Assembly (NCBI GenBank): GCA_964442925.1
Contig: CAYUEM010000001.1
Location: 1-43,826 of the forward strand
From: an uncultured Hyphomonadaceae bacterium
GTDB taxonomy: Bacteria; Pseudomonadota; Alphaproteobacteria; Caulobacterales; Hyphomonadaceae
Direction of reading: 5' to 3'
DNA: 43,826 nucleotides
The translations under genes were made by a program, and so were the position numbers. Shown in pieces: positions 2,591 through 42,601 of the stretch (position 1 is its first letter; every line of letters starts with the position of its first letter). The notes under the pieces are model-generated. The model worked only from the letters and a program-made list of their open reading frames with translations, was not told the DNA's origin and did not search any database.

Positions 2591-2743
2591 TATTTTTTCT
2601 GTTTTGTTGGGTTAGGCTGTGGGGGCGCAAAGGCGTCTCGCGTCTTCCGTTTCCGGGCAGATGGGGTGCCGCGTCAGACAGGTGCGTGTGCCGTGCAAGA
2701 GATATCTCGCCATAACCAGCCAAATCAGGCTAGACTGCCCGTT

Positions 2744-4747
2744 ATGAAGGGTATGACGGAAAACCAATGGTCTGCGCCTGATCCGGCGGCACCGGTTTCG
2801 CCGCCAGCGCACCCGGCCGTAAGTGTTCATCACGCCATGGACACCGCGCGCGGCGCAGGCAGCTGGCTGCCTTGGACGGGTCTGGTTCTGGCGGTCTGCT
2901 GGTGGGCTTGCGTCGCCGTCAGTCTGGTCACGGTGCTCGACCTTGACGCGATCATGCGCCAGCCTCCGGTCACGCTCGCAGCCGGCGCTCTGCTGGCACT
3001 GATGCCCGGAATGCTGCTGCTGATGGCGGGTTTCATGGCGCGTGAAAGCGCACGTGCCGGCGCCGCCAACGCGCTTGTGCTGCAGGCAGCCGACCAGTTG
3101 CTTTCCCCTGCTGCGCGTATTGGCGAGCACGCAAATACGCTCGCCGGCCAACTCGCCGCCAGCACGGAAGAGATCAATCAGGCAATGAACCGGGCGCTGT
3201 CTTCGATGAAGGCCATGGCCGGAGAAATCGGCGATGAGCGGATGCGGCTGGAATCGGTCAGCTATGCGACCGCCGACAATGCGCGCGAACTCTCCACACA
3301 ACTGACACGCGAACGCGAAGCACTGGAAAGCCTCGCACGCGAATTGAAGGCGCAGGGCGAAGCCGTCGCACAGGCGATCCCGCGGCAGGCCGAAGCGATG
3401 GTTGACGCCTCACGCCAGGCCGGCGAAGATATCCGTCGCGCCGATGATGCGCTGGATGGAAGGCTTCAGCACCTGCAAGCCACCCGCGGTGAGATTGGCC
3501 GCCAATTGCAGCAGCTTGAGCAGATCACAGCCAGCGCCGGAGAAAAGAGCGAAGGGCTGATGTTCGCCATCGCCCGGATTCAGGAAAAGCTCGAACAGTC
3601 CGAACAGATGGTCAAGGCTGCCGTTCGCTCGGGCGAGGTTGCCGCAGCTGCTGCCGGTTCGACCGGGGACGCCCTGCGCGCGGCTGTCGATACCGCGCTG
3701 GATGGTGCGCGCAGGGCCAGTCAGGACATCGAGGCCAGCACCCGCGCTGCGCAGGCCGAGACGGCGCGCGCACTTGATGGCCTGCACCGAAAGGCTGAGG
3801 ATGTCGCCGCTGCGATCCGCGCTGCCGGCATGGCCGCGCGCGCAGAAACCGACATTACTGAACAGCGCCTGGCGAAGGTCTCCAGCGCTTTCCGCTCCGC
3901 CGTGTCTGGGCCGCCCGACTCACAGCCGCAGCGCGCCGCCGACACGACGCAAGCCGCGTCCCGATCCGCAGAGGCTGCCGACCCGCCCCCCGAGGCTCTT
4001 CCGATATCTGGTGAGCGCAAACCCGGCATATCCGGAGCGATCGACGCGCCGCCGCGACAGGTTGACGAAGACCTGTTCGAGACCCTGTCACGTGACCGCG
4101 CGGCGCACGCAGAAGACGAGGCGCGCGGCGAGGAAATCGCCATTGGCTGGCCACGCAAGAGCGGAAATGCGCCGGGCAGTTTCTCGGAGATTTTCGACCC
4201 TGACCCCGCTGCCACGTCCGGCCCCGCAGCGCCTGCGCCTGGCTTTGGGCCGACCGAAGCGCCCGACCCCAGCAATGTGGTGCGGATGTCGCGTGCGCCG
4301 GTCGGTGAGACGCCTCCCATAAACAAGGATGCCGGCTGGACCAGCATTCTGTCAGACATGGACCGTTCGGCAGCCGGCCAGCTGCCACGCGAAGACACCG
4401 CTGAGGAAGTCATCTCGCGGCTGGAAACCTCTGGCATCGCGCTGGCCAGTATTTTCCGCCCCCGCGACAAGAAGAAGATTGCGCTGGCCTCACGCAAGGG
4501 CGAGCGCCTGCGCAGGGCGGCAATCCTCAGCGCAGCAAAAGGCGAGGTCGACCGGGTCGAGAAACGTCTCAAAGCGGACGATTATCTCTGCCAGCTGGCA
4601 ATGGACTTCCACGCGATGGAAGAACCGGACGCAATTGCCGCGCTCGACCGGACCCAGAAATCCAGCCGCAATGCCAGCCCGCGCCTTTCCGCTTTCCTGC
4701 TGCTGGATGCTGCGCTGAGCGAAGAGCGGATGCAGGATTTCGGCTGA
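2744..4747 (+). CDS. Membrane-anchored coiled-coil / Ala-Pro-rich protein, function unknown
   Basis: Long ORF. Hydrophobic segments (LVLAVCWWACVAVSLVTVL, LLALMPGMLLLMAGFMA) are followed by about 300 aa of heptad-like Ala/Glu/Arg/Gln-rich sequence, then a Pro/Ala low-complexity region and a conserved-looking C-terminal domain. Start uncertain (2666, 2744 or 2753). Confidence 0.6.
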   Translation: MKGMTENQWSAPDPAAPVSPPAHPAVSVHHAMDTARGAGSWLPWTGLVLAVCWWACVAVSLVTVLDLDAIMRQPPVTLAAGALLALMPGMLLLMAGFMARESARAGAANALVLQAADQLLSPAARIGEHANTLAGQLAASTEEINQAMNRALSSMKAMAGEIGDERMRLESVSYATADNARELSTQLTREREALESLARELKAQGEAVAQAIPRQAEAMVDASRQAGEDIRRADDALDGRLQHLQATRGEIGRQLQQLEQITASAGEKSEGLMFAIARIQEKLEQSEQMVKAAVRSGEVAAAAAGSTGDALRAAVDTALDGARRASQDIEASTRAAQAETARALDGLHRKAEDVAAAIRAAGMAARAETDITEQRLAKVSSAFRSAVSGPPDSQPQRAADTTQAASRSAEAADPPPEALPISGERKPGISGAIDAPPRQVDEDLFETLSRDRAAHAEDEARGEEIAIGWPRKSGNAPGSFSEIFDPDPAATSGPAAPAPGFGPTEAPDPSNVVRMSRAPVGETPPINKDAGWTSILSDMDRSAAGQLPREDTAEEVISRLETSGIALASIFRPRDKKKIALASRKGERLRRAAILSAAKGEVDRVEKRLKADDYLCQLAMDFHAMEEPDAIAALDRTQKSSRNASPRLSAFLLLDAALSEERMQDFG

Positions 4748-10361: not shown

Positions 10362-10497
10362 GATCGCCTGACCGCTTGTAGGCCCTTCTTTGACCGATCA
10401 CCAGAGCCAGCCTTGGCGCAATGACAGTGATTTAAGCCGCGCAAGGGTGGCCGTAGGGCCGTGCGGGACATATCATGTTACTGAGGGGGACCTTCTG

Positions 10498-11772
10498 ATG
10501 TCATCATTTCTTGCCTATGCCCCGCTTAACGCGTCCAGTCCGGTTGCCTGTTATCTCGCAGTGCGCGACCAGACGACCGCGCTGGCCACCACGCTTTCAG
10601 ATGCCGACGCCACGGCCCAGTCGATGGAGGATGCCAGCCCGGCGAAATGGCACCTCGCGCACACCACATGGTTCTTCGAGAGTTTTCTGCTCAAGCCGCA
10701 TCTGCCCGGATACGAGGTCTTTGCAGACGGCTATGACTATTTGTTCAATTCCTATTATGAGGGTGCCGGCGAGCGGCATGCCCGTCCCCGCCGGGGGCTG
10801 ATCACACGGCCGGGCCTGGGTGAAATCGGCGACTATCGCGGCCATGTCGATGCAGCGATGCAGCGGCTGATCGAGGCTGGCGGCGACGCTCGCTTGTCGG
10901 GGCTGATCACGCTCGGGCTCAATCACGAACAGCAACATCAGGAATTGTTGCTGACCGATATCCTTCACCTGTTTGCGCAAAATCCGCTGCGGCCTGCGTT
11001 CCGCGATCCTGAACCGCTGGCGCTGGATGCCGGTGCCCCTCCTGGGCCTGACTATTTCCCGTATCAGGGCGCGATCGCCCGGATCGGCCATTCCGGCGAA
11101 GCTTTCGCATTTGACTGCGAAAGCCCGCGCCATGACGTTCTGCTTGCGCCTTTCGAGCTTGCTGCGCGCGCTGTCACCAATGGTGAATGGATCGATTTCA
11201 TCGCCGATGGCGGTTATCAAAACCCGCACATCTGGCTGTCGGACGGCATCGCCCGGGTGCGCGAAGCCGGCTGGAAGGCCCCGCTCTACTGGCAGAACCG
11301 CGATGGTGAATGGTGGTCGATGACCCTGCGTGGTTTCCAGCCCGTCGATCCGGCTGCGCCGGTCTGCCATGTCAGTTTTTACGAGGCCGAAGCCTTCGCC
11401 CGCTGGGCTGGCGCGCGATTGCCAACCGAGGCGGAATGGGAGGTTGCAGCCAGCACTGTGCCGGTTGATGGCAATTTCGCATCCACAGGCCGCCTGCGAC
11501 CGCGTGCGCAGACGGGTCTGGGTGCGTATCCGGCTGGCCTTTTCGGCGATGTCTGGGAATGGACTGCCAGCGCCTTTCTGCCCTATCCCGGCTATCGCCC
11601 CCTGCCGGGAACGGTCGGCGAATACAATGGCAAGTTCATGAGCGGCCAGATGGTGCTGCGCGGCGGCAGTTGTGCCAGTCCGCAGGGACATCTGCGCGCC
11701 AGCTACCGCAATTTCTTCCCGCCCGACAAACGCTGGCAATTTTCCGGCGTCCGGCTTGCGCGCGACGGCTAA
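10498..11772 (+). CDS. egtB: Ergothioneine biosynthesis sulfoxide synthase EgtB (DinB_2 + FGE-sulfatase domains)
   Basis: DinB-like N-domain ([32 protein letters not shown]) and a C-terminal FGE-sulfatase-like domain ([25 protein letters not shown]). Followed by egtD. ATG at 10498 preferred to TTG at 10390. Confidence 0.85.
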
Positions 11773-11800
11773 CGCGCGCGTCTCAGCGAAAGAGGACCAG

Positions 11801-12745
11801 ATGACAGATAAGGATGCGCCGGCGGCTGACCCCGCCTTCCAGCAGAATGTGCTTGAGGGACTTGCAAGGCCGCAAAAGGCAATCTCCTCGCGCTGGCTTT
11901 ATGATGAGATCGGCTCGCATCTGTTCGAACAGATCACACAGCTGGATGAATACTATCCCACGCGCACCGAGGCGGCGATCTTTCAGGCGGCCCGCAGCGA
12001 AATCGCGCAGGCCTGCGGAGCCGGGGCCGTGATCGTGGAATATGGTGCCGGCGCAGCGATCAAGACGCGGATCCTGCTGGCGGCACTTGAGCGGCCCTGC
12101 GCTTATGTTCCGCTCGATATCTCGGAAGATTTCCTGCACGCGGCGGCGCGCGATCTGGCGCGGGATTTTCCCGGTCTCGATATCCACCCGATCGCAACCG
12201 ACTTCATGACACACACGGACCTGTCGCAGCTGCCCGATTGCGGCGGGCGCCGTATCGGGTTCTTTCCCGGCTCGACGATTGGCAATCTGACCGATGCGCA
12301 GATCGGTGTGTTCCTGACCGAGGCACGCCGCGCACTTGGCCCGGATGCGCGCTTCCTGCTGGGCGTCGATCTGCGGAAATCGCCGGAAATTCTCATTCCC
12401 GCCTATGATGATGCACGCGGTGTGACCGCCGCCTTCAACCTCAACCTGCTGCAGCGCATCAACCGCGAGCTTGGCGCTGATTTCGATATCGCCGCATTCG
12501 CACATGAGGCGCGATGGAATGATGCAGAAAGCCAAATCGAGATGCATCTCGTCGCAAGGCAGGCGCTGCGCGTGCATCTGGCTGGCCTGACGTTCGAGTT
12601 TTCCGCGGGCGAGAGCATACTGACCGAAATTTCCCGCAAGTTCGAAATCGCATCGCTTGCCCGGCTGGCCGCGCAAAGTGGCTGGACGCTGGACCGGCAA
12701 TGGAGCGATCCGGCCAATTATTTCTGCGTCGCCCTGCTGAGCTGA
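11801..12745 (+). CDS. egtD: L-histidine N-alpha-methyltransferase EgtD
   Basis: EgtD-type sequence (KAISSRWLYDEIGSHLFEQITQLDEYYPTRTE, VEYGAGAAIKTRILL, FFPGSTIGN). ATG at 11801 follows AAAGAGGA; the upstream extension from 11672 overlaps egtB. Confidence 0.85.
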   Translation: MTDKDAPAADPAFQQNVLEGLARPQKAISSRWLYDEIGSHLFEQITQLDEYYPTRTEAAIFQAARSEIAQACGAGAVIVEYGAGAAIKTRILLAALERPCAYVPLDISEDFLHAAARDLARDFPGLDIHPIATDFMTHTDLSQLPDCGGRRIGFFPGSTIGNLTDAQIGVFLTEARRALGPDARFLLGVDLRKSPEILIPAYDDARGVTAAFNLNLLQRINRELGADFDIAAFAHEARWNDAESQIEMHLVARQALRVHLAGLTFEFSAGESILTEISRKFEIASLARLAAQSGWTLDRQWSDPANYFCVALLS

Positions 12746-12755
12746 AGCCGCGGCG

Positions 12756-12784
12756 TTGACAGCCTGCCGGCTTCTGGTTCTTAA
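12756..12784 (+). promoter_or_regulatory. Weak sigma-70-like promoter candidate upstream of the RyR/protease operon
   Basis: TTGACA at 12756-12761, a 17-nt spacer, then TCTTAA at 12779-12784, in the 83-bp gap between egtD and the 12829 ORF. The -10 match is poor. Confidence 0.2.
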
Positions 12785-12828
12785 CTGTTCGGTAAGGGAA
12801 TGGGGGAAACCGGGCGGGGAGCCGGGAC

Positions 12829-14865
12829 ATGGCGTCAGAAGATGGCAAGACACGGCAAACCCGCTTCGGCGCGATGGGACAGCGCAGTGTTTGGGATGTG
12901 CCGATCGGCTGGCTGCTGATTGGCGGCGTTATGGCGATTGTGCTGGCCTTTGCCGGCTGGATGAGCGTGCTGCGTCCACAGGAAACCGGCCTGGCGCGGA
13001 TCGGCGAGGCGGTCTATCGCGCTCTTGCCGTCAACACCATGTCCGACATCTATTCCCGGCCGATGAACGACGCGGATCTCGATCCTTCTGCGCCCGCTTA
13101 CGGCTTTTTCCTGCTGACACTGGCGCGCTGGATTGGTGCCCTGGTGTTTTTCCTGACCCTTGCCAAAGTCGTCGTCCGCCTGTTCTGGCAGAATGTCCTG
13201 ACCTGGTGGGCAAGTCGTTTCTACAGCGATCATGTCGTGATTGCCGGCGACCGGCCATTTGCCCGCCATGCCGCTGAGGAAGCGGTGCGAAAGGGGCTGA
13301 AAGTCGTGCACTTCATGCCGGGTGGCCAGGAATTGGTGCGCGATGGTGTTCTCACTCTGGACAGTGATATCGGCCTTGAGGGCATGCTGCGGCTGTCGGG
13401 TGCGCATCGCGCCCGCTCGCTGGTCTTTGCCTTTTCCGACAATGCCGAAAATGCAGACCTGGCGCGGCGCTGCTTTGTCATGGACGCCTTTTCCGAGGCC
13501 GCAGAGACCCATAAGCGCCGCGAAACCGGCCAGATCGGCCCGCGCGAACGTGTCGGCCCGCACATTTTCGTCATGCTGGATGATGACTGGTTCGAACACC
13601 GCGAAGAGCTCAATTACGCGTTTCACAAAGCCCCCGAAGGCGAGGGCACCACCAGTGGCGGCAAGCTTGACTCCATCGTCGAGATCATCAGCGAAAGCCG
13701 CGCAGCTGCGCGCGCCGTGCTGGGTCGTCACCCGCTTTTCACGCTGCAGGAGGGCGGCATCCAGCATACGCTGCTGCTGGGCTTCGGAACGATGGGCGAA
13801 GCGCTGCTGACGGAGATTTGCGAAAGCCAGCGGATCGACCCGGACCGACCGCAGAAGATCACCATTCTCGATCCTGACCCGGAAAGCTGGGCCCGGTTCG
13901 AGCGGCGCTGTCCAGGCTGGCAGGAGGTGTTCGACGGCGCTTTCTTCCCAGCCCGCCTTGATGCGCCGGGCGTGCACGAAGCCGGCCTTCTGCAGCGTCT
14001 CAATTCAGCGCCATTGACGGCGGCTTATGTCGTGACGGGTGCAAGGCTCGACCCGGTCATTGGCGCTGCGCAGCTCAAACAGTGGCTCGACCAGCAAAGC
14101 GAAGAAGGCCGGCTCGACGCGGAGGATATGGCCTTCCCGGTCTTTGCCTGTGTGCGTGGTGGCTCGGCGCAGTCCGGCCCGCTTGCGGCGCAACAGGTTC
14201 AGATCGCCGGCGATGGTCCGGTTATGGCGCGCCTGCCGATCATCGCCTTCGGAGCCTGGCCGGAAGTGGTCGCCGCCGCGCGCGTTCTTGACGAGGAGCC
14301 CGATGCGGCTGCCTTTCTGGTCCACAGCGTGCACAATCAGCTGTTCAGCCCCGATCCGCCGACAAACTGGAGCCAGGTCGAGGAGGTCAACCGATATTCC
14401 AGCCGGTCAGCTGCCAATTTCATTCCGGCGCTGATCCATGCGGCGGGCTATGACCTTGGTGACTGGCTGAAAGCGAGCGCGCCCCTGCCGCCTTCGATCA
14501 ACCGGTTGCCGAAGATCGCTGCGGGCCGGCAACTGGCCGAAGGCGACAGCGAGGAAATCTATCTCGCCAGGCTGGAACATGCGCGCTGGCGGGCGGAACG
14601 GTTCCTGCGCGGGTTTCGCTGGGCGGAGCAAACGGACAAGCCGCGCCGGCGTCATGCCGATCTGGTTGAGTTTGCGCAACTGCCGGCTGCCGCGCAGGAC
14701 TACAATATCAACTATGTCCGCACCCTCTCCGACAGTTTGCTACCAGCTGCGCGCGGCGCACTTGCGCCTGACCGTCCGGCAGCGCACCGCATCCTGCTGC
14801 GTCCCAGCGACATGGCGTTGGCCGCGCGGTCCAGAACACGAGCGGAGGCGCTTGAAAATGCCTGA
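12829..14865 (+). CDS. Membrane protein with Rossmann (TrkA-N/RCK-like) region and C-terminal RyR-like domain (gene A of candidate system)
   Basis: Two N-terminal hydrophobic helices (IGWLLIGGVMAIVLAFAGWM; FFLLTLARWIGALVFFLTLAKVVV). A degenerate Rossmann start (HVVIAGDRPFARHAAEEAVRKGLKVVHF) and a second with an intact GxGxxG (LLLGFGTMGEAL, about 13771-13800). C-terminal LARLEHARWRAERFLRGFRW...RRHADLVEFAQLP resembles the RyR domain (PF02026). Confidence 0.75.
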   Translation: MASEDGKTRQTRFGAMGQRSVWDVPIGWLLIGGVMAIVLAFAGWMSVLRPQETGLARIGEAVYRALAVNTMSDIYSRPMNDADLDPSAPAYGFFLLTLARWIGALVFFLTLAKVVVRLFWQNVLTWWASRFYSDHVVIAGDRPFARHAAEEAVRKGLKVVHFMPGGQELVRDGVLTLDSDIGLEGMLRLSGAHRARSLVFAFSDNAENADLARRCFVMDAFSEAAETHKRRETGQIGPRERVGPHIFVMLDDDWFEHREELNYAFHKAPEGEGTTSGGKLDSIVEIISESRAAARAVLGRHPLFTLQEGGIQHTLLLGFGTMGEALLTEICESQRIDPDRPQKITILDPDPESWARFERRCPGWQEVFDGAFFPARLDAPGVHEAGLLQRLNSAPLTAAYVVTGARLDPVIGAAQLKQWLDQQSEEGRLDAEDMAFPVFACVRGGSAQSGPLAAQQVQIAGDGPVMARLPIIAFGAWPEVVAAARVLDEEPDAAAFLVHSVHNQLFSPDPPTNWSQVEEVNRYSSRSAANFIPALIHAAGYDLGDWLKASAPLPPSINRLPKIAAGRQLAEGDSEEIYLARLEHARWRAERFLRGFRWAEQTDKPRRRHADLVEFAQLPAAAQDYNINYVRTLSDSLLPAARGALAPDRPAAHRILLRPSDMALAARSRTRAEALENA

Positions 14866-16639
14866 TTATAACAAACTGATTTCCGATGGTGCCGGCACGC
14901 TGGTGCGGTTTCCCTCCGCAAATGACCCGGCTTTTACCCCCGGCGAGACCTATATTTCGGTCACGATCCGACGGATCAGCCTGAAGCGTGGGCGGGTGAA
15001 TTTGCGTAAATACGGGCCTTATGTCTGGGGCGTGCTCGGCCAGACAAGTTTTGACCAGCAGGTTGAACTGGCCGGCGTGTTTGCCCCTGCGCGCGAGGAT
15101 GACATGTTCGCCGGCGCTGCCGGGATCCCCGGTTCACAGGTTGGCGCACCGCTCGCGCAGCCGGAATTTTCCGCCGCCCCGGGGCCGATGCAGGCCGAAA
15201 GCTTTCGCCGGCTCGATCGGATGTTGCTTGTCAATCGCCAGCTGACGCCGCGTCTCGTATTTCAGGATGACGGACCGTTCGAGCTTGGCTTCGGCGCAAT
15301 CCTGCAAAAGGATCATCTCGCAGCGACTCTCAGCCTCGTCGAGCAGGTCGTCAAATCCCCGGTCGCGCAATTTGTCTCTGCGCTGGTGCCGCCGGTCGGC
15401 AAGATCGTAGACAGCGCATCGATTGCGGGCACGGTGCGCCGCCTGCTTGGCCGGCTGGATGACGACAAGGGCGCTGAGCGCCTTGCAGCGGTTTCAACGC
15501 GCCTTTCCCAGTTGCGTAACGAGGGTGGACAGCTGCTGGCGGGCACCTATGCGATGATTGCTGAAGATGATCTGCCCGGCGATCTGCGTTTTGATCCACA
15601 GCGCCAGTTGGTGATGCGTGCCGATACGCCTTTCGAGGATGCGCCGTATCTCGCCTTTGATCTTCAGTGCGAGACCACCCGGCCCGACTGGGGCAGCGTT
15701 CCCGATGTCAATTCGGCCTGGCGCACGCTGGAGGCGCAGGCGATGGATGGCGATGTCGAGGCGGCGCTCGCCAGCTTCCGCAGTGCGGTCTATCTGTCGC
15801 CGGATCTCGTGCCGGCCGACAGTCGCCGCCTGCATGAGGCGGCAAGGCGCAAGCTGGCGCCACTGATGGGCGGCGCGGAAAGCTTCTCGCTCGGCGGGCT
15901 GAAAATGCCGGCGCTGGGCCCGCTCGGCAAGGCGCTGCGCGATTCCTATGAAGAAGTGATGGCTGGTGGGTTTGGCGAGGTCCGCTCGGAATGGGATCGT
16001 TTTCACCGCTGTCATGAGGTGATGCGGATCAATGAGGGCGGTTATGTCGATCATCCGTCCGATCCGGGCGGGGCGACAAACAAGGGTGTGACCCAGGGCA
16101 CCTATGACGCCTGGCGCAAACGCAAGGGCCAACCGCGCCGGCATGTGCGCGAGATCGACGAAGCCGAAGTCATGCAGATCTATTTCGAGGGCTACTGGCG
16201 GGCCGGAAACTGTCACCGCATGCCGAACGAAGCGGTCGCGCTGGTCCTGTTCGACGCCTGCGTGAACCATGGCGCCGGTCCGGCAATGAAATTCATCCAA
16301 CGTGGGGCGGGGCTTAGCCCGCAGGATGTTGATGGCGCATTTGGCCCGCGCACGCTGCGTGCTGTCGAGATGACCGAACCGACGCTGCTGGTTGGCCGCG
16401 CGCTGGATGCGCGCTGGCGTTTCTTCGAGAAGATCATGGCCCGCAATCCGAAACTGGAGGATTTCCGCCGTGGCTGGCGCGCCCGGGTCGACGGGCTGCG
16501 CGCGATCACGCATCAGTGGCTGACCGGACAGGAAAGCGCCCTCGCGCCCCTTCCGGACGTGCTCGCCGAACATATAGCGCCGCCGCAGCTTGATGGAATT
16601 GACGCGGCAGGCCCGGAACATTCGGAGGCTGGATCATGA
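14858..16639 (+). CDS. Leaderless fusion of an unknown N-domain to a GH108 muramidase + PG_binding_3 module (gene B)
   Basis: ATG at 14858 with GGAGG at 14844-14848; it overlaps the gene A stop (ATGCCTGA). The C-terminal INEGGYVDHPSDPGGATNKGVTQGTYD is the GH108 (PF05838) core with the catalytic Glu. The following VDGAFGPRTLRAV...WRFFEKI resembles PG_binding_3. No signal peptide or TM segment is visible, and the first ~400 aa are unassigned. Confidence 0.8.
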   Translation: MPDYNKLISDGAGTLVRFPSANDPAFTPGETYISVTIRRISLKRGRVNLRKYGPYVWGVLGQTSFDQQVELAGVFAPAREDDMFAGAAGIPGSQVGAPLAQPEFSAAPGPMQAESFRRLDRMLLVNRQLTPRLVFQDDGPFELGFGAILQKDHLAATLSLVEQVVKSPVAQFVSALVPPVGKIVDSASIAGTVRRLLGRLDDDKGAERLAAVSTRLSQLRNEGGQLLAGTYAMIAEDDLPGDLRFDPQRQLVMRADTPFEDAPYLAFDLQCETTRPDWGSVPDVNSAWRTLEAQAMDGDVEAALASFRSAVYLSPDLVPADSRRLHEAARRKLAPLMGGAESFSLGGLKMPALGPLGKALRDSYEEVMAGGFGEVRSEWDRFHRCHEVMRINEGGYVDHPSDPGGATNKGVTQGTYDAWRKRKGQPRRHVREIDEAEVMQIYFEGYWRAGNCHRMPNEAVALVLFDACVNHGAGPAMKFIQRGAGLSPQDVDGAFGPRTLRAVEMTEPTLLVGRALDARWRFFEKIMARNPKLEDFRRGWRARVDGLRAITHQWLTGQESALAPLPDVLAEHIAPPQLDGIDAAGPEHSEAGS

Positions 16640-19600
16640 GTTTCGACACCACTCTCAACCCCGCAGAAGAGCGCGCCGAGTTCGAGGCTGCGCGCGCCGC
16701 ACTGATGGGGCTGGGACGCGAGGAGGCCCGGATCGACGCCATCGAAGCGGTGGCGCGGCTTGTTGGAGAGGCTGATGATCTGGGTGCTGAGGGCTCTGCG
16801 GAACTGCTCAGCGTCGCACAGACACTGCAGGACCGGCGCGCATTCGGGCTCATGCTTGTGCTGTGTCTGCTTGCGCGTCAGGCCGGTCTTGCCACTCCGA
16901 AACTGCGCCAGAAGGAAGTGCAGGCGCTGATCGAGCTTGGCCGGCTTGAAGAAGCCGTGCGCGAGGCGCGGGCACTGGCCGAACTGACGCGCAGCGCGCA
17001 GCCCGATGATCCCGCAGAGACTGCCAACTGGGCATTGTGGCGCACCGCACAGGGCAATATCGGGCGCGCCTACAAGCAGGCCTATGTCAATGCCGCGCTG
17101 GCCATGGCGGCAGGCGAAGGCGGCGACCGACAGCCCGATCCGCAGGACCTGAAAGCGGCGGTCGAAACCTACAGGGCCGTCTGGGAGCGCCATCAGGGTC
17201 CGGGCACGACTTATCATTGCGTCAATGCGGCAACGCTGATCATTCGCGCGGTGCGTGATCGTGCGACCGGTCGTGAAGGAGACTTCAGCTGGGCGCTTGA
17301 GGAAGATGCGCGCCGTCTGGCCGGGGACATCCTTCGCACGCATGAGAAAGAACTGCGCGCCGCGCTCGCGCCGGGGCCGCAAGCGGGCGGCGATGTCTGG
17401 ACGCTGGCAACCTGCGGGGAAGCCTATCTGGTTCTCGGACTGATGGAGGATGCAGCCCTTTGCTATGGTGCCTATGCGGGCCTTAAGGACGCGGATGCCT
17501 TCGAGATCGGCTCATCGCTGCGCCAGCTTGAGCAGGTCTGGCTGTTCGACGGCAAACGCGATGATGCTGGTGGGCGGATCGTGCGCCTGTTGAAAGGGGC
17601 ACTGCTCAATCTCGAACCGCGCGGCGCGGGCAGGGCGGCGCTGGATATCCAGCGCGAAAGCGTTGTTCTGTCACCACAGGAGGCCGGGCTGATGCGGGCC
17701 GACCTTGAAGGGCGTGAGACGATCGGCGAGGGCCCACCGCGTGACGGCTATGAAGCCTATTTCCAGAAGCGCGGTGCCGCGCGGGCGGCCGGAGGCATGG
17801 TCGATCTCGCCCGCATCCTCTCGGCTGCCGCCCGGGCACAGAGCGTCTGCGCAATCGAGACGCTGCAGGATGGCCGCTGGCAGAGGATTGGCACCGGTTT
17901 CGCCGTCAGGGGCGATGTGTTGCATGATGACTGGGGCGATCTCGACCTGATCATGTCCAATCATCACGTCGTGGCCCAGTCCGACGGCGCGCTGTCGAGT
18001 TCCTATCGCCGCTGCCGGGCCAACTTCGTGGAGTATGATCCGGTGTTGCAGGCCGAGCATGAACATCCGGTCTATTTCGATGACATCCTGTGGCGCTCCG
18101 GCGAGCGGGCAATGGACACGGCGGTTCTGGTGCCGCGCGGCAAACTGCCGGATGTGGCGCGGATCATCACCCGGGATGAAACCTCCAATTACCTGCCGAA
18201 GCGACCCGTGGATGGCGTCGACGGCACGGAAATGCATGTCGTGATCCTCGGCTTTCCCGGCGGCGGGGATATGCAGCTGTCATATGGTGACGAGATGCTG
18301 CTTGATCACAATGCCTGCGAGCCTGGCGCGCTTCCCGACCCTCAGCGGACCCTCAACGGCCAGCCTGTGCGCCTGCACTACCGCACGCCGAGCCGACCGG
18401 GCAGTTCCGGCAGTCCGGTCTTCATGGCCGGAAGCTGGGAACTGGTCGGCATACACCATCGCGGCCAGCGCGACTGCCCGCGCCTGCCGCCAAAACAAAG
18501 CACCTATGAGGCGAATGAAGGCATCTGGCTGCCATCGATCCGTGCGGCCATTCGCCGGGCCAGCCTGAAACTGGGCTCAGCCGATACGCCCGATTCCGGC
18601 GAGCCGCTGCCGGCGTCCGGCCACGCGCCGCAGGGGGAGCTGTTTGGTGCGGCGGCTGCGGCTTATCGCACGCTGCGCAATGCCATACCGGATGCCAGCG
18701 CCCTGCCGCGTCCGCGCGCATCTGAGCATGGCGGCCAGGTCAGCGCTGGTTCGGCCCCGGTGATCGGACGGCCCATCGGCACGGCGCGGCAAGCGGCCGG
18801 GGGCGTGCCACGCGGCGGCCTCGACATTCCGGGGCACACGGTTTTCCTCGCGCAATATGACAATGGCGATGTGGCGGATCGCTATTTGAAGCCGGGCCAT
18901 TTTCGCGGTGAAATGGAGCAGTTTCGCGCCCGCACACAGGGCTTTGAGACCGTGATCGGTGATGACAACCGCACCCAGATCCACGACACGGGTGCCGACC
19001 CGTTCCGGATGATCTGCGCGCTTGTCGTGCACTGGCCGCACATGCCGCCGACCAGCGGAACCGGCTTTCTGGTGGGCCAGCGCACAGTGCTCACTGCGGG
19101 CCACTGCATCCTGCCCGGACCGGGCTTTCCAGACCCTGCAGCGATCGAGGTGCGTCCGGGCCGGTCCGGCACAAGGGAGCCCTTTGCCGATACGCTGGGC
19201 GCGCTGGCAGCCGAGCGGATTTCGCTGCATACGCAATGGTCGGCGCGGTTTGATCCGCGCTTTGATGTCGGAGCGATCCATCTCGACAAGCCGGCAGGTG
19301 AGACCGTCGGCTGGTTCCGTGTCGGCGTGCGCGATCCCCAGCTGCTGACACGCCACTGGGCGCATGTCACCGGCTATCCCGGCGACAAGATCACGCAGGG
19401 TGCCGGTGAAGCGGGCGGAGCGCTCTATGCCGCCGAGCAATGGCACCATGCCACACCGATTGCGCAAGTGCATGACGGGCGCGTCTATTATCCTGCCGAT
19501 ACATTTGCCGGACAGAGCGGCGCACCCGTCTACATCCTCGATCAGGCCGATGGCCTTGCCACCGTGATCGGCGTGCATGCCTATGGTGTCGGTCCGAATG

Positions 19601-19689
19601 CGGGCGCTTTCGCGATGGAGAACAATTCCGCCGCGTGGATTGATGCGGCGATGCTGCAGGTGATATCAGACTGGAGGAATGTGGCATGA
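16636..19689 (+). CDS. TPR-like helical domain + two trypsin-fold serine protease domains (gene C)
   Basis: ATGA overlap with gene B and GGAGG at 16624-16628. The N-terminal ~350 aa are all-helical (DVWTLATCGEAYLVLGLMEDAALCYGAYAG is TPR/DUF4071-like). Protease 1 has SNHHVV (His), MDTAVLV (Asp) and GSSGSPVF (Ser, about 18400-18423). Protease 2 has LTAGHCI (about 19090), FDVGAIHL and AGQSGAPVY (about 19507-19533), V8/Glu-endopeptidase-like. Confidence 0.8.
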   Translation: MSFDTTLNPAEERAEFEAARAALMGLGREEARIDAIEAVARLVGEADDLGAEGSAELLSVAQTLQDRRAFGLMLVLCLLARQAGLATPKLRQKEVQALIELGRLEEAVREARALAELTRSAQPDDPAETANWALWRTAQGNIGRAYKQAYVNAALAMAAGEGGDRQPDPQDLKAAVETYRAVWERHQGPGTTYHCVNAATLIIRAVRDRATGREGDFSWALEEDARRLAGDILRTHEKELRAALAPGPQAGGDVWTLATCGEAYLVLGLMEDAALCYGAYAGLKDADAFEIGSSLRQLEQVWLFDGKRDDAGGRIVRLLKGALLNLEPRGAGRAALDIQRESVVLSPQEAGLMRADLEGRETIGEGPPRDGYEAYFQKRGAARAAGGMVDLARILSAAARAQSVCAIETLQDGRWQRIGTGFAVRGDVLHDDWGDLDLIMSNHHVVAQSDGALSSSYRRCRANFVEYDPVLQAEHEHPVYFDDILWRSGERAMDTAVLVPRGKLPDVARIITRDETSNYLPKRPVDGVDGTEMHVVILGFPGGGDMQLSYGDEMLLDHNACEPGALPDPQRTLNGQPVRLHYRTPSRPGSSGSPVFMAGSWELVGIHHRGQRDCPRLPPKQSTYEANEGIWLPSIRAAIRRASLKLGSADTPDSGEPLPASGHAPQGELFGAAAAAYRTLRNAIPDASALPRPRASEHGGQVSAGSAPVIGRPIGTARQAAGGVPRGGLDIPGHTVFLAQYDNGDVADRYLKPGHFRGEMEQFRARTQGFETVIGDDNRTQIHDTGADPFRMICALVVHWPHMPPTSGTGFLVGQRTVLTAGHCILPGPGFPDPAAIEVRPGRSGTREPFADTLGALAAERISLHTQWSARFDPRFDVGAIHLDKPAGETVGWFRVGVRDPQLLTRHWAHVTGYPGDKITQGAGEAGGALYAAEQWHHATPIAQVHDGRVYYPADTFAGQSGAPVYILDQADGLATVIGVHAYGVGPNAGAFAMENNSAAWIDAAMLQVISDWRNVA

Positions 19690-20045
19690 AGAAGAGCCCT
19701 GAAGCGGAACATCTGACGGCGATCGCACGCACTGTGCATGAGGCCGTTCGGGCATGGTCGGCCGCAAACGGCCAGAAGCCGATCCCACACTGGAACCGCG
19801 CACCGGCGTGGATGCGCGCATCGACCCGTGAAAGCGTCCAATTCACAATCAACAACCCCGAAGCCCCTGACAGCGCGCAGCACGACCAGTGGATGGAGCA
19901 AAAGCTGCGTGACGGCTGGGTCCATGGCAAGGTCAAGGATGCTGGCAAGAAGACCCATCCGATGCTGGTGCCTTATGAACAGTTGCCGGACATGGAAAAG
20001 CGCAAGGACGCTCTTTTTCGCGCCATCGTGCAGGCACTGGTGTGA
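19686..20045 (+). CDS. Standalone RyR-domain protein (gene D)
   Basis: ATGA overlap with gene C and GGAGG at 19673-19677. IARTVHEAVRAWSAANG...WMEQKLRDGWVHGKVKDAGKKTHPMLVPYEQLPDMEKRKD matches the RyR domain signature (GW.yG...d...K.HP.LVPY.eLp..eK.kD). Confidence 0.8.
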   Translation: MKKSPEAEHLTAIARTVHEAVRAWSAANGQKPIPHWNRAPAWMRASTRESVQFTINNPEAPDSAQHDQWMEQKLRDGWVHGKVKDAGKKTHPMLVPYEQLPDMEKRKDALFRAIVQALV

Positions 20046-20130
20046 ACCGAGCCGGGCCTGAGCGCAACGAAGGAGAGGCTTTACCCGTCCCCGTGGCGCC
20101 CTAAGTCTTTTCCGGAAAAGGAGAGCAGGA

Positions 20131-20841
20131 ATGCGGGCGATTGTGTTTGGCGTCGGCGGCGGTATTGGGCGGGCTCTTGCCGCTGAACTGGTCGTGCGCG
20201 GCACCGAAAAGGTGATTGGGGTCTCGCGCAAGCCGCCAGAAAACCTTGGCGATGTGGAATGGGTGCGCGCCGACATCACCGATGAAGAGTCTCTCGCCAG
20301 CCTTGCCGCACAGTTGAAAACCCGCCAGCCGATAGACTTGGTGATCATTGCGACGGGCATCCTGTCTGATGGTGACAGCCTGCAGCCGGAAAAATCCTAC
20401 CGTCAGCAGGACACGGCCAATTTCGAGCGAGTGTTCCGTATCAACACGTTTGGACCGGCGATGGTGGCCAAACACTTCCTGCCGCTGATGCCGGCGAAAG
20501 GCCGCGCCGTGTTCGCCGCGCTGTCGGCGCGCGTCGGCTCGATATCCGACAATCGGATTGGCGGCTGGCATGCCTATCGCGCCTCGAAAGCAGCTTTGAA
20601 CATGCTGATCGCCAATTATGCGATTGAACAGGGTCGCCGCAACGCGGCATTCATCGCCGTCGGCCTGCATCCCGGCACAGTGGACACAGCCCTGTCACAG
20701 CCGTTTCAGGCAAATGTGCCAGAAGGAAAACTGTTCACCCCGGAATATTCCGCCGCATGCCTGCTTGATGTGATCGAGGGCCTTGGCCCCGATAATAGCG
20801 GTCGCGTTCTCGACTATGCCGGAAAGCTGGTCCCGGCCTGA
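20131..20841 (+). CDS. SDR family oxidoreductase (CsgA/C-factor-like short-chain dehydrogenase)
   Basis: N-terminal GVGGGIGRALA nucleotide-binding loop and catalytic YRASKAALN motif. Own AAGGAGA RBS upstream. Confidence 0.8.
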   Translation: MRAIVFGVGGGIGRALAAELVVRGTEKVIGVSRKPPENLGDVEWVRADITDEESLASLAAQLKTRQPIDLVIIATGILSDGDSLQPEKSYRQQDTANFERVFRINTFGPAMVAKHFLPLMPAKGRAVFAALSARVGSISDNRIGGWHAYRASKAALNMLIANYAIEQGRRNAAFIAVGLHPGTVDTALSQPFQANVPEGKLFTPEYSAACLLDVIEGLGPDNSGRVLDYAGKLVPA

Positions 20842-22088: not shown

Positions 22089-22123
22089 CGAGACGCAGGC
22101 GCCCATTGGCCCGCTCCTCAGGA

Positions 22124-22741
22124 TCAGGGACGGTGAGACGTTGCCGCGCGCTGCTTCTTGCCCTTCGCGCCGTCATAATGGGCGATGATCCGCGCGAAAT
22201 CAGCGTCATAATCGGCACCGGGCTCGAACATGTCGGCGATACAGATGGTCCTGTTGCCATAATCGAGCACGCTGACGATCAGCGCCACATTGGCAGCGCG
22301 CGCGATGCGGTGATAACCGGTCTTCCAGCCGGCCACTTTGGCGCGCGTGCCTTCCGGTGCGATGGCAAGGATCATCTTGTCAGTTGCATTGAAAGCCGCC
22401 GTGGTCTGGTCAACAAGCTCGCTGGCATTGTCGCGATCGACAGGCACGCAGCCGAGCCGGCGGACAATGTCGCCAAAAGGGCCGCTGACCAGCGAAGCCT
22501 TGCCCATCCAGCGCAGTTTGACGCGGTAATATCCCGCTGCAGCCAGCATATTGATCCCGTCCCAATTGGACGTGTGCGGCGCAGCGATCAGGACGGCCTT
22601 GTCGATGCGCGGGAAATCTCCGCGGATCTTCCAGCCCGCCGCACGCAGATAGGCACCGCAGACCAGCCGGATCAGTTCCGAACCCATTCCGCGATAGGCT
22701 GTCGGTCGGGCAGTCGGCTCTGCATGCGTCGGTTTGATCAT
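22124..22741 (-). CDS. Lysophospholipid (1-acyl-sn-glycerol-3-phosphate) acyltransferase family protein
   Basis: HX4D acyltransferase motif (PHTSNWD) and APEGTR motif. Confidence 0.8.
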   Translation of the reverse strand: MIKPTHAEPTARPTAYRGMGSELIRLVCGAYLRAAGWKIRGDFPRIDKAVLIAAPHTSNWDGINMLAAAGYYRVKLRWMGKASLVSGPFGDIVRRLGCVPVDRDNASELVDQTTAAFNATDKMILAIAPEGTRAKVAGWKTGYHRIARAANVALIVSVLDYGNRTICIADMFEPGADYDADFARIIAHYDGAKGKKQRAATSHRP

Positions 22742-22824
22742 CGCGCGAGACTGAACTGCAAAGCGGGCATTGGCCAGCGCTTTGATGCAGCATTGCTGTC
22801 GGGCAGGGGCGATCGCAAACGCGA

Positions 22825-23667
22825 TCAGGCCGCCGCGTTCTGTTTGCCTGGGCGAGCGGCTTCATAGGCTCCGCGCAGACGTCGGGACGGTTGCAGGCTG
22901 CTGTCGGGCGCACTGACAATGTGTTCTTTCTCTCCAAGCAGGACAATGCCGCCGGGAAGAAGCTGGCGTGCGAGCCGCGCGCAGGTCTGCTCGCGGATCG
23001 AAGCGCTCATGGCGCAAAGCACATTGCGACACAGGATAGCATCGAACTGGCCGAGCATGGCTTCGTCATCAATCAGGTTTTGGTGGCGAAACCCGATACG
23101 CTCGCGCAACTCCTCACTGACCTGCCAGTGGCCGGTGTCGAGGCGCTCGAAATTGTCCATCAGGCGGTGAACCGAAAGGCCGTTCTGCACTTCGAAATGG
23201 CCATAAAGCCCGGCGCGCGCCTGGTCGAGCGATTTGCGACAGATATCGGTCGCGGTGATCTCGATCCGCGCGCCTTTCAGGCCGCGTCTGTCGGCCTCTT
23301 TCAGCAAGATCGCCAGCGAATAGGCTTCCTGACCGGTCGAAACGCCCGCGCACCAGATACGCAGCCGACCGGCTTTTGAGTGTTTCAGCCGCTCGGTGAG
23401 GCCCTGATGCACCAGCCGGAGCAGCCGGTCGCGGTCACGGAAGAACCAGGTTTCGCGGGTTTGAAGGCTCGCGGCAACCTCTGCTTCCAGACGCGAATTG
23501 GGCCGCGCCTTCAGGCACGCCGCCAACTCGTCACAGCCGGGAAAGCCCTCGCGACGAAGTATCGGTGCCAGTCTTGCTTCGACCAGATAGGATTTCGAGA
23601 CTGGAATCGACTGACCCGTGCTTCTCAGCGCAAGATCTGCCAGTTCATTAAAGGTCGCGTCCTGCAT
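22825..23667 (-). CDS. cheR: Chemotaxis protein methyltransferase CheR
   Basis: CheR N-terminal helical domain (SKSYLVEARLAPILRREG) and SAM-binding domain (RIWCAGVSTGQEAYSLAILL; FDAILCRNVL). Confidence 0.88.
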   Translation of the reverse strand: MQDATFNELADLALRSTGQSIPVSKSYLVEARLAPILRREGFPGCDELAACLKARPNSRLEAEVAASLQTRETWFFRDRDRLLRLVHQGLTERLKHSKAGRLRIWCAGVSTGQEAYSLAILLKEADRRGLKGARIEITATDICRKSLDQARAGLYGHFEVQNGLSVHRLMDNFERLDTGHWQVSEELRERIGFRHQNLIDDEAMLGQFDAILCRNVLCAMSASIREQTCARLARQLLPGGIVLLGEKEHIVSAPDSSLQPSRRLRGAYEAARPGKQNAAA

Positions 23668-32132: not shown

Positions 32133-32283
32133 GGCAGCCTTCTCATTGATTTGCGAAACCGTCTTCTAGGCCTATCGCACCGGCTTCGCCAAGCACAAAC
32201 CGCCCTCGCCCCTTGCGCGAGCGCTCTCGGGCCACTAACCCGTTGTCAGGACAACAGGGACAAGACGGGGACTTTGAAGAACT

Positions 32284-33282
32284 TTGGCCAAGACTGTATT
32301 GGTGACCGGCGGCGCCGGCTATGTGGGCAGCCATTGCTGCAAGGCCTTCGCGGCAGCCGGCTGGAATGTGGTGGTGTTTGACAATCTTTCGCGTGGCTGG
32401 CGCGATCTTGTCAAATGGGGTGACCTGATTGTCGGTGACCTTCTCGACCCGGTTTCGCTCGACAAGGCTTTCGCCCGGGTCAGGCCTGATGCGGTTGCCC
32501 ATTTCGCTGCACTTGCCTATGTCGGCGAGAGCGTTTCCGATCCCGGCCTTTACTATCGCAACAACACGACAGGCTCGATGCAACTGCTTGATGCCATGGT
32601 CCGGGCGGGGACCGACAAGCTGATCTTCTCGTCGACCTGCGCGACCTATGGCGTGCCCGAGCGCGTGCCGATGACCGAAGACATCCCGCAAAACCCGATC
32701 AATCCCTATGGCTGGTCGAAACTGTTCGTCGAGCGGATGCTCGCTGATTATGGCGCTGCGCACGGACTGCGTTCGGTGCCCCTGCGTTATTTCAATGCGG
32801 CAGGCGCCGATCCCGATGGCGAGACCGGCGAGCGGCATGAACCCGAGACCCATCTCATACCGCTGGCCATTCGCGGCATGATGCAGGATGGCTTCAAGCT
32901 GACGATTTTCGGCGATGATTTCGACACGCGCGATGGCACCTGCGTGCGCGACTATATCCATGTCACCGACCTGGCCGACGCACACACGCGCGCGCTGGAT
33001 TATCTCCAGCAGGGTGGTGCATCGGACGTGTTCAACCTCGGCACCGGGACCGGAACGACCGTGCGCGAAATCGTCGAGGCTGTGGAGCGGGTTTCCGGGC
33101 GGCAGGTCAACAAGTCGGTTGGCCCGCGGCGCGCCGGTGACCCCCCGGCGCTTCTGGCCAGCGCGGAGAAAGCCCGGCGCGTGCTTGGCTGGGAGACGGC
33201 ACATTCCGATATCGACACGATCATCTCGACCGCCTGGCGCTGGCACCGCGAAGAGCAACAGCGCGGCCATGCGGGCGCATGA
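32284..33282 (+). CDS. galE: UDP-glucose 4-epimerase
   Basis: VLVTGGAGYVGSH Rossmann motif, SSTCATYG, YGWSK catalytic Tyr-x3-Lys. TTG start at 32284. Confidence 0.88.
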   Translation: MAKTVLVTGGAGYVGSHCCKAFAAAGWNVVVFDNLSRGWRDLVKWGDLIVGDLLDPVSLDKAFARVRPDAVAHFAALAYVGESVSDPGLYYRNNTTGSMQLLDAMVRAGTDKLIFSSTCATYGVPERVPMTEDIPQNPINPYGWSKLFVERMLADYGAAHGLRSVPLRYFNAAGADPDGETGERHEPETHLIPLAIRGMMQDGFKLTIFGDDFDTRDGTCVRDYIHVTDLADAHTRALDYLQQGGASDVFNLGTGTGTTVREIVEAVERVSGRQVNKSVGPRRAGDPPALLASAEKARRVLGWETAHSDIDTIISTAWRWHREEQQRGHAGA

Positions 33283-42286: not shown

Positions 42287-42601
42287 TCACTGCGCCAGAA
42301 AAGCCTCCGACACAATTGCCTGCTTCAATGACGTTTCCGCAGCCTGGACACTTTCCCGCCACGCCGCGATGTCCTGTTTTAGCGCTTGCACCCTGTTGGC
42401 CTGATAGGCCTCCAGGCCGTTCCGGAGCGCCATCAGCGCCCACTCCGTCTGCTGGCCGAGTTGCTGCTGGCTTTTTTCAAACAGGGAAAGCTCGGCCTCC
42501 AGGGCCCGCACCTGCGCAATGGCTTTGGCGAGTCTCACCTCAGCCGCCTGGCGCCTCAATTCGGCAAGCCAGACCAATTCGGAAACTTCATTGACTGTCA
42601 T
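42287..42601 (-). CDS. Coiled-coil protein translationally coupled to flhB, hypothetical (possibly flagellar)
   Basis: ATGA overlap with the flhB stop. The 104-aa all-helical heptad-like sequence matches no family I recognise. Confidence 0.5.
   Translation of the reverse strand: MTVNEVSELVWLAELRRQAAEVRLAKAIAQVRALEAELSLFEKSQQQLGQQTEWALMALRNGLEAYQANRVQALKQDIAAWRESVQAAETSLKQAIVSEAFLAQ

Follow-up and report, generated by a model that had tools for sequence, protein, structure and literature searches.

The window analysed here, the 43,826 nucleotides (nt) of contig CAYUEM010000001.1 from an uncultured Hyphomonadaceae bacterium (GenBank assembly GCA_964442925.1), contains a rare operon of four genes, here called A to D. 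Gene C combines a helical sensor-like region with two different trypsin-fold proteases in a single polypeptide. Because the operon unites it with an ion channel (gene A, predicted), a cell-wall-cutting enzyme (gene B) and a nucleotide-binding protein (gene D), gene C probably acts as the trigger in a module for self-destruction or immunity. We give about an even chance to the more specific proposal that the operon is a protease cascade gated by a nucleotide signal, which executes a lysis or abortive-infection-type module. Each part of the operon belongs to a known kind, and the architecture of gene C is far beyond chance. In the literature searched we found no description of a single chain in which a TPR-S sensor controls a trypsin followed by a Glu-specific zymogen, nor of an operon joining such a protein to an RCK channel that bears a ryanodine receptor (RyR) domain, a muramidase and a host-encoded protein resembling RyDEP.

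Architecture of gene C

An earlier reading of the DNA, made from its letters alone (the sequence-only reading), had described gene C as a TPR/DUF4071-like, all-helical region of about 350 amino acids (aa) followed by two trypsin-fold domains, which were joined by an Ala/Pro/Gly-rich linker and not preceded by a signal peptide. A Pfam scan matched TPR-S (PF20308) at aa 85-201, Trypsin_2 (PF13365) at aa 419-606 (E 6.9e-19, 69.4 bits with a cut-off of 27.6) and Trypsin at aa 809-990 (E 7.9e-11). Every motif quoted in that reading is present: DVWTLATCGEAYLVLGLMEDAALCYGAYAG at aa 253-282, SNHHVV at aa 441-446 (nt 17956-17973), MDTAVLV at aa 493-499 and GSSGSPVF at aa 589-596, and TAGHCI (aa 820-825), FDVGAIHL (aa 876-883), GYPGDK (aa 913-918) and GQSGAPVY (aa 959-966) further downstream. 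The AlphaFold2 model (mean predicted local distance difference test score, pLDDT, of 73) is all-helical over aa 9-403, where pLDDT values of up to 96 are reached, beta-rich over aa 404-644, disordered over aa 644-728 and beta-rich again over about aa 780-1013. Ala, Pro and Gly make up 40% of the linker (aa 645-771) compared to 31% of the whole protein. The N-terminus is hydrophilic, the highest Kyte-Doolittle score within the first 25 windows being 0.42, and neither an N-terminal hydrophobic segment nor a signal peptide was seen in gene B, C or D. The proposed layout was therefore borne out by these data. The same architecture is found in 21 homologues, 19 of them full length, and the gene C family comprises 22 proteins among 5.8 billion clusters. 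Table 1 gives an overview of the operon features; a bar within a motif marks a predicted cut.

Table 1 Genes, domains and sites of the operon in the window
Feature	Position (nt)	Strand	Residues (aa)	Remarks
Gene A	12829..14865	+	678 in total	predicted ion channel with two transmembrane (TM) segments, tandem RCK, C-terminal RyR
Gene A, TM1			26-47	
Gene A, pore helix			55-70	
Gene A, TM2			90-131	
Gene A, RyR domain	14545-14748	+	~573-640	
Gene B	14858..16639	+	593 in total	N-domain (aa 1-~335), linker, GH108 + PG_binding_3
Gene B, linker site E341|S/F	15878-15883	+		invariant E341 ('AE|SF' or 'QE|FF')
Gene B, muramidase module	16031-16486	+	~392-543	GH108 + PG_binding_3
Gene C	16636-19689	+	1017 in total	open reading frame
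Gene C, sensor region	16636..17844	+	1-403	N-terminal, helical, TPR-S / MAP3K_TRAF_bd (formerly DUF4071)-like
Gene C, protease 1	17845..18567	+	404-644	Trypsin_2
Protease 1, H444	17965-17967	+	444	triad
Protease 1, D494	18115-18117	+	494	triad
Protease 1, S591	18406-18408	+	591	triad
Gene C, linker	18568..18948	+	645-771	disordered
Gene C, G769-F-E771	18940-18948	+	769-771	predicted maturation site E771|T772
Gene C, protease 2	18949..19689	+	772-1017	S1B glutamyl-endopeptidase-like; includes the stop codon
Protease 2, H823	19102-19104	+	823	triad
Protease 2, D877	19264-19266	+	877	triad
Protease 2, S961	19516-19518	+	961	triad
Gene D	19686..20045	+	119 in total	small RyR-domain protein homologous to RyDEP

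The TPR-S sensor region

The definition of the TPR-S domain reportedly goes back, in all likelihood, to Burroughs and Aravind in 2020. For this copy the score is marginal: the isolated N-domain reached 28.7 bits, the full gene C protein 26.0 bits at a cut-off of 27.6. In an alignment of 34 N-domain family members TPR-S was matched in 34/34 and MAP3K_TRAF_bd (PF13281) in 19, and eight residues (Q96, G143, R144, K147, Y179, F289, R296 and Q297) are invariant across phyla. A polar cluster of R144, K147, Q148, Y179, N197, R296 and Q297 is likewise invariant and is common to TPR-S proteins associated with TIR domains; its composition is compatible with putative binding of an NAD-derived signal. When the N-domain profile was compared with the PDB, the best match was the central regulatory region of human ASK1 (MAP3K5; 5ulm). 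This match (E 0.013) is weak, and the alignment pairs GLLGRxYKQ with CLVGRIYKD and GINxxALL with GINYAVLL. Gene C and ASK1 appear to share a homologous helical repeat scaffold with GRxYK(Q/D) and GINxxxLL motifs, whereas the output of gene C is a protease instead of a kinase and its context is bacterial. Together with the Pfam match, the 5ulm alignment supports the TPR/DUF4071-like assignment of the sequence-only reading.

Binding of NAD-derived signals by TPR-S has been predicted or presumed in the literature (10.64898/2025.12.03.692087). The same source describes the type VIII Thoeris effector ThsI as carrying "the TPR predicted by Aravind and colleagues", which its authors presume to perceive canonical cyclic ADP-ribose (cADPR). 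According to another preprint, an isomer of cADPR is produced by BcTpr, in which a glycosidase is joined to a TPR. Both works connect this TPR with TIR signalling.

Protease 1, the linker and the zymogen-like protease 2

The triad of protease 1 (S591 lies in GSSGSP) is invariant in 22 orthologues and in 53/53 members of a wider, multi-phylum family. By profile and by the ordered His, Asp and Ser the domain belongs to the clan PA serine peptidases, with predicted proteolytic activity. The triad of protease 2 is invariant in every homologue which reaches this domain. Two different and apparently active proteases had been postulated from the letters of the sequence, and the alignments place the catalytic residues of both domains where they should be; since both triads are conserved, readings of gene C as a pseudoprotease were rejected.

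Protease 2 had also been called V8- or Glu-specific-like, which was confirmed by sequence as well as by fold. Using phmmer, aa 773-985 of gene C were aligned to chain residues 2-190 of 1p3c, the Bacillus intermedius glutamyl endopeptidase (BIEP), with an E value of 3.3e-12, and the top Foldseek matches were 1p3c (TM-score 0.86 on the target), Esp, pro-Esp, N-terminus-locked Esp and V8. With the S1B endopeptidases (BIEP 1p3c, V8 1qy6, Esp 4jcn, pro-Esp 6q24) the domain shares the fold, the triad, DTFxGxSG, GVH and the GYPGDK loop. In S1B enzymes the pocket residues contacting the Glu side chain are the equivalents of Thr/Ser190 and His213; their counterparts in protease 2, T956 (DTFAGQSG) and H981 (GVH), are near-invariant. 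An exhaustive HMMER search with aa 740-1017 yielded 4653 relatives. Among the 150 best of these the triad residues are kept in 146 (H), 149 (D) and 147 (S) sequences and H981 in 150/150, and 94/143 have Glu at the position aligned to E771, within the motif E|[ST][VI]IGxD[DE]R. Relatives beyond the gene C family are mostly proteins of ~300 aa with an N-extension of ~65 aa.

The start of protease 2 (TVIGDDNRT) aligns with VIGDDGRT of 1p3c. As aa 773-985 align to chain residues 2-190, T772 falls on residue 1, which we take to be the mature N-terminus of BIEP; the BIEP propeptide presumably ends in Glu. Protease 2 appears zymogen-like, because it starts at the mature start of BIEP and is preceded by the invariant E771. 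In enzymes of the V8/BIEP type the free alpha-amino group of residue 1 completes the Glu-binding S1 site, and a cut at E771|T772 would accordingly be expected to activate protease 2. G769 is invariant as well, and the predicted cleavage site lies in a segment of low pLDDT (<50 over aa 767-778). Within the linker (pLDDT 22-40 over aa 644-728) a second Glu, E668 (nt 18637-18639), forms an island kept in 21/22 sequences with a flank conservation of 0.33. We refine the first reading accordingly: rather than being active all the time, protease 2 is probably a zymogen that a cut at E771|T772 would release. It is not a classical secreted S1B member, as gene C has no signal peptide: the domain stands at the C-terminus of a 1017-aa cytoplasmic-type protein behind a sensor and another protease, and its "propeptide" is the whole regulatory protein.

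Partner genes A, B and D

The open reading frames (ORFs) overlap by 8 nt (A/B, ATGCCTGA), 4 nt (B/C) and 4 nt (C/D, ATGA), and Shine-Dalgarno motifs precede C and D (GGAGGA before D). Judged from this arrangement, A, B, C and D are translationally coupled. A scan of positions 12600-20300 gave 0 promoters and terminators at the level of shuffled sequence.

Gene B contains a muramidase module (Pfam GH108, 4e-26; PG_binding_3, 1.5e-10) with the PDB relatives 7dnp, 2is5 and 6v40. Invariant residues are E341, E393 of the EGG motif and G557-Q-E559, of which E341 and E559 are conserved islands amid variable sequence and candidates for cleavage. Besides translational coupling it is the invariant E341, a candidate cleavage site only, that links gene B to gene C. 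In a fusion of gene A and muramidase (P0072) the 'AE|S' site and the following linker are retained. For the N-domain of gene B (aa 1-~335; nt 14858-15880 in the window), which occurs in this clade only, neither Pfam nor the PDB had a relative. It shows strongly conserved YISIAVRRISL, GVLGQTNFD, QLTPRLV and RPDWGSVPDVN motifs.

The AlphaFold2 model of gene A (pLDDT 83.9, predicted template modelling score 0.81) had the GsuK channel (4gx1/4gx5), a TrkA ring and MthK as top Foldseek matches. Like GsuK (4gx5), a K+ channel with tandem RCK domains, the model shows a 2TM plus two RCK fold; unlike GsuK, gene A lacks the TVGYG filter and adds a RyR domain. The filter is degenerate (NTMSDIY here, N-T-M/L-S-D-x-Y across orthologues); gene A is channel-like and not a canonical K+ channel. 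G318xG320xxG323 and D348, the GxGxxG...D of RCK2, are invariant, and NAD- and ADP-bound structures of GsuK exist. The Pfam RyR match is weak in this gene A (6e-5) and clear in orthologues. Gene A is in effect a predicted ion channel carrying a nucleotide-binding module of the ryanodine receptor type.

According to a 2026 preprint (PMC13232231), the RyR proteins of phages (RyDEP) use H75, W78, H100 and D117 to cleave 2'/3'cADPR or to sequester it. Gene D, matched by Pfam RyR with 1.4e-11, carries all four as H66, W69, H91 and D108 in an ungapped BLASTP alignment with the RyDEP DyoEdafos gp78; they are kept in orthologues, and gene D is 46% identical to a homologue from a Ruegeria phage. The RyR domain of gene A retains the three ligand-contacting residues as H584, W587 and H609, while the position of the catalytic Asp (Asn626 here) is Asn in all orthologues. 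In contrast to RyDEP and the sponge-type RyR proteins (PMC13232231), gene D is host-encoded and located in an operon with effectors; the activities of both RyR domains are predicted. The recurring theme of nucleotide signals (RyR, RCK, TPR-S) had been missed in the sequence-only reading.

Relatives of the TPR-S and Trypsin_2 half in other phyla

Beyond the gene C family, 63 loci match only aa ~40-640 of gene C with 26-32% identity. They derive from Bacteroidota, Acidobacteriota, Planctomycetota, Actinomycetota, beta- and deltaproteobacteria and others. At 58 loci the gene could be called, and its partners were confirmed by Pfam. Proteins resembling alpha/beta-hydrolases (14 adjacent, 6 fused), NucA endonucleases (5 adjacent, 2 fused) and metallophosphoesterases (5 adjacent, 1 fused) recur, and a second trypsin is also found among the partners. 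One protein (L081) consists of TPR-S, Trypsin_2, Trypsin and Endonuclease_NS, which gives the double-protease architecture a precedent. A census of 127 other ORFs in the neighbourhood showed TIR_2 as the commonest family (10 ORFs, plus 4 with TIR), followed by TPR-S (6) and MAP3K_TRAF_bd (5), which are ThsI/BcTpr-like, and Trypsin_2 (5), with 2 each for Patatin, SLATT_2 and Amidase_2.

Two of the loci echo the operon of the window in composition. In a Planctomycetota metagenome-assembled genome (MAG; L038:6296-15005) DUF4062, a 1376-aa fusion of hydrolase, TPR-S, Trypsin_2 and Metallophos, TIR_2, a RyR protein (126 aa, 13554-13934) and a TIR protein of the CAP12/Pycsar type lie together; the locus is a candidate for a Thoeris-like island whose effector is a protease. 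The other (L033) carries a hydrolase-like gene, TPR-S-Trypsin_2, an M15 peptidoglycan peptidase and a RyR gene (119 aa, 11637-11996).

Nucleases that are activated from a pro-form by trypsin (PMC12799240) and hydrolases activated by proteases (PMC12642450) are experimentally established. Like these modules (also PMC7159879), gene C has a sensor-fused trypsin-like protease that would unmask a latent effector by site-specific cleavage, and NucA, alpha/beta-hydrolase and metallophosphoesterase domains occur beside, or in one chain with, the relatives of its first half, some of which have two trypsins plus NucA. It differs in that the downstream element is a second, different protease, the candidate effector a muramidase and the sensor TPR-S. 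The term "TPR" does not occur in PMC12642450, and PMC12799240 and PMC7159879 mention generic TPRs elsewhere, not as the sensor of a trypsin protease. With Thoeris systems (type VIII ThsI, a CMP-hydrolase plus TPR; type IV ThsE; BcTir/BcTpr) gene C has the TPR scaffold in common. Furthermore, ThsI/BcTpr-like, SLATT and TIR genes adjoin the TPR-S proteases, and ThsE, a caspase-like protease whose activation by N7-cADPR is experimentally established, is a precedent for a signal-activated killer protease. On the other hand, the operon in the window has no TIR gene, its proteases are trypsin-fold and not caspase, ligand binding by TPR-S of gene C is putative, and the literature searched describes no TPR-S-trypsin effector.

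A proposed protease cascade

The sequence-only reading had proposed a sensor-coupled proteolytic effector or activator that processes, for example, gene B or gene A. This idea fits the comparative data, namely the recurrence, in many phyla, of TPR-S plus Trypsin_2 beside or fused to enzymes of the latent-effector type and near TIR genes, and the invariant E341 in gene B, and substrates and ligand are here put forward as proposals. The TPR-S region would sense a ligand, most likely an NAD-derived nucleotide of the ADP-ribose (ADPR)/cADPR class, and its binding would switch on protease 1. The flexible linker would then be cut after conserved Glu residues, at E668 and chiefly at E771|T772, the latter cut giving protease 2 a free N-terminus (TVIGDD...) that may complete the S1 pocket. 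The freed Glu-specific protease would cleave partners after Glu; in gene B a cut at AE341|S would detach the GH108 muramidase from the N-domain, and broader cellular targets are possible. Gene A, as a GsuK-like RCK channel with a presumably non-catalytic nucleotide-binding RyR domain, may respond to the same signal. If gene D buffers or destroys this signal, it would therefore set the threshold. The predicted output is failure of membrane and cell wall, i.e. abortive-infection-type death or regulated lysis.

Several points weigh against this cascade. As stated above, the TPR-S score of gene C is marginal and the ASK1 profile match weak, and the role given to the free alpha-amino group is general background on V8/BIEP-type enzymes. 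The sequence does not decide which of the two proteases would cut which site. How the muramidase would reach the wall is not evident, since B, C and D lack an export signal and the C-terminus of A is cytoplasmic by prediction, also where A is fused to the muramidase; moreover, gene A is a channel-type pore and not a holin. Gene B cannot be the sole substrate because it is absent in one lineage (L003/L017). Neither the operon nor those parts of the window that a non-exhaustive scan covered yielded a TIR, a DrHyd or any other enzyme that could generate the signal. The operon is thus without the TIR or DrHyd gene of a Thoeris-type system; TIR genes do flank distant relatives of gene C. PADLOC gave no system-level match; sub-threshold fragments of C (PDC-S45, RT-Protease_XI) were its only output, with nothing for A, B and D. 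Finally, the operon is located at one fixed site beside egtBD among housekeeping genes and appears to be vertically inherited in one clade, which is atypical for the usually patchy, island-borne defence systems.

If the cascade holds true, the operon would represent a bacterial module for immunity or cell death in which a protease cascade within one polypeptide serves as the executioner; the literature searched contains no description of such a module. A trypsin-fold enzyme would join the signal-activated proteases of TIR-type signalling beside ThsE, and the TPR-S scaffold, common to human ASK1, would gain a testable ligand-to-protease read-out. It would also mean that RyR-domain nucleotide binders, one of them fused to an ion channel, are used by the host and not by a phage, and it would bear on a question raised in PMC13232231, namely whether the R12 region of RyR is a site of cADPR action. 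Taken jointly, the narrower reading of the operon as a chromosomally fixed receiver of cADPR-type signals without its own TIR, with an ion channel that bears a domain of the RyR-R12 type and is gated by the nucleotide, a TPR-S sensor that sets off an initiator trypsin acting on a Glu-specific zymogen, lysis from within by the muramidase and a RyDEP-like threshold, is doubtful. Under that narrower reading the RyR-bearing channel would correspond, in bacteria, to the cADPR-to-RyR axis of animals and might be its forerunner, and the proteolytic steps would be regarded as comparable to initiator and executioner caspases.

Genomic setting, distribution and alternative explanations

Full-length homologues of gene C were found in 17 species-level genomes, all of them MAGs labelled Hyphomonadaceae, Alphaproteobacteria or Pseudomonadota. 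Throughout, the order is egtB-egtD-A-B-C-D. Upstream of it lie lptB-lptA-lptC-rnd and, given enough flank, also rpoN. Identity to the window copy is 81-87% for LptB and 65-74% for EgtB, and 35-66% (A), 50-68% (B), 47-66% (C) and 57-80% (D) for the operon. Other scans returned little: a JGI metagenome scan with gene A found one locus only, and NCBIfam had nothing for A, C or D.

This setting is the basis of the main rival, which we hold to be possible and on balance improbable. The operon would serve physiology and not immunity, as a lineage-specific module for regulated autolysis or envelope remodelling in a Hyphomonadaceae clade, acting for instance under redox or nutrient stress or when DNA, vesicles or gene-transfer particles are to be released. 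The channel together with the RyR/RCK domains would then sense the NAD(H)/ADPR state of the cell itself, and C would process B. The synteny rpoN-lptBAC-rnd-egtBD-A-B-C-D is fixed in all 17 genomes with enough flank, the divergence of the operon tracks that of neighbouring genes and the rest of the window is housekeeping. The lack of a TIR gene in the operon and of a PADLOC system fits this reading as well, and GH108 plus PG_binding_3 is of the "holin-associated muramidase" type in NCBIfam. Nevertheless divergence is faster in A, B and C than in the flanks, as the comparison of A with LptB shows. The composition varies by lineage through loss of B, fusion of B to A or an extra protease, and gene D is closest to phage RyR proteins of the anti-Thoeris type. 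In addition, TPR-S plus Trypsin_2 is elsewhere accompanied by TIR, NucA, patatin, SLATT and hydrolase effectors, the vocabulary of conflict systems.

Three variants of the operon were seen among the homologous loci. Besides the loss of B mentioned above, one locus (L085:650-3412) has gene A fused to the linker and GH108/PG_binding_3 with the N-domain of B skipped, resulting in [A-GH108]-C-D with 'AE|S' kept. In L008:2738-5059 (also L009, L015 and L019) two additional genes lie between egtD and A, one for a putative lipoprotein (471 aa) and one for a trypsin-like protease (293 aa); the latter, standing alone, would be a third protease of the system.

A domesticated phage cassette, the remnant of a prophage put to use in counter-defence or lysis, with B as endolysin, A as pore, D as anti-Thoeris RyR sponge and C as phage-type protease, is very unlikely. 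The module of gene B does match phage endolysins (phrog_315, 4e-40) and gene D phage RyR proteins (phrog_5154, 4e-38; 41-50% identity over most or all of the length in 297 phage records, including Ruegeria phages). However, pattern scans of 2.9 million IMG/VR viral contigs yielded no relative of C or A, the only PHROG match of C is faint (1.2e-4), and no integrase, capsid or other phage gene lies nearby in the scanned parts of the window. The site is conserved across genomes which are 47-66% divergent, and B has a 335-aa N-domain that is not of phage type.

Just as unlikely is a housekeeping role of the HtrA/Lon kind, in which gene C would work constitutively in the cytoplasm for quality control or processing and its TPR region would bind substrate peptides, with no gating or zymogen activation. 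Peptide binding is a common function of TPR domains, the two triads are intact and Trypsin_2 includes housekeeping proteases, but the extremely narrow distribution of the gene C family, its invariant polar cluster shared with TIR-associated TPR-S, the conserved Glu of the maturation site and the tight coupling to channel, muramidase and RyR genes argue against it. A secreted nutritional or virulence protease like classical V8 or BIEP is scarcely credible and was rejected because gene C has no signal peptide: although the closest solved relatives of protease 2 (BIEP, V8, Esp) are secreted, gene C is also without a TM segment and has a 770-aa cytoplasmic-type extension with TPR-S, only 8/108 close relatives of protease 2 have a signal-like N-terminus, and the operon contains no secretion genes.

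Other observations in the window

Directly upstream of gene A the ergothioneine genes egtB (DinB_2 plus FGE-sulfatase) and egtD (Methyltransf_33) occupy positions 10390-12745. Their adjacency to gene A is conserved in all related genomes, and a TTGACA hexamer occurs at 12757, within the 83 nt that separate them from A. A link of the operon to ergothioneine synthesis was considered and set aside, as the constant upstream position of egtBD is inseparable from vertical inheritance of the locus. Further flanks of the operon are an SDR and a pseudouridine synthase gene (Pfam).

Ten further ORFs of the window are housekeeping genes or have no Pfam match. Long ORFs without a match (E<=1e-4) are located at 2666-4747 (693 aa), 22106-22867 (253 aa) and 32143-33294 (383 aa), and some of them may be non-coding shadow ORFs in high-GC sequence. 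Between positions 40001 and 43000 the G+C content is lower, at 0.51-0.57 instead of about 0.61, and the DNA there may be foreign or atypical; its ORFs include 40483-41541 (+) and 42598-43671 (-).

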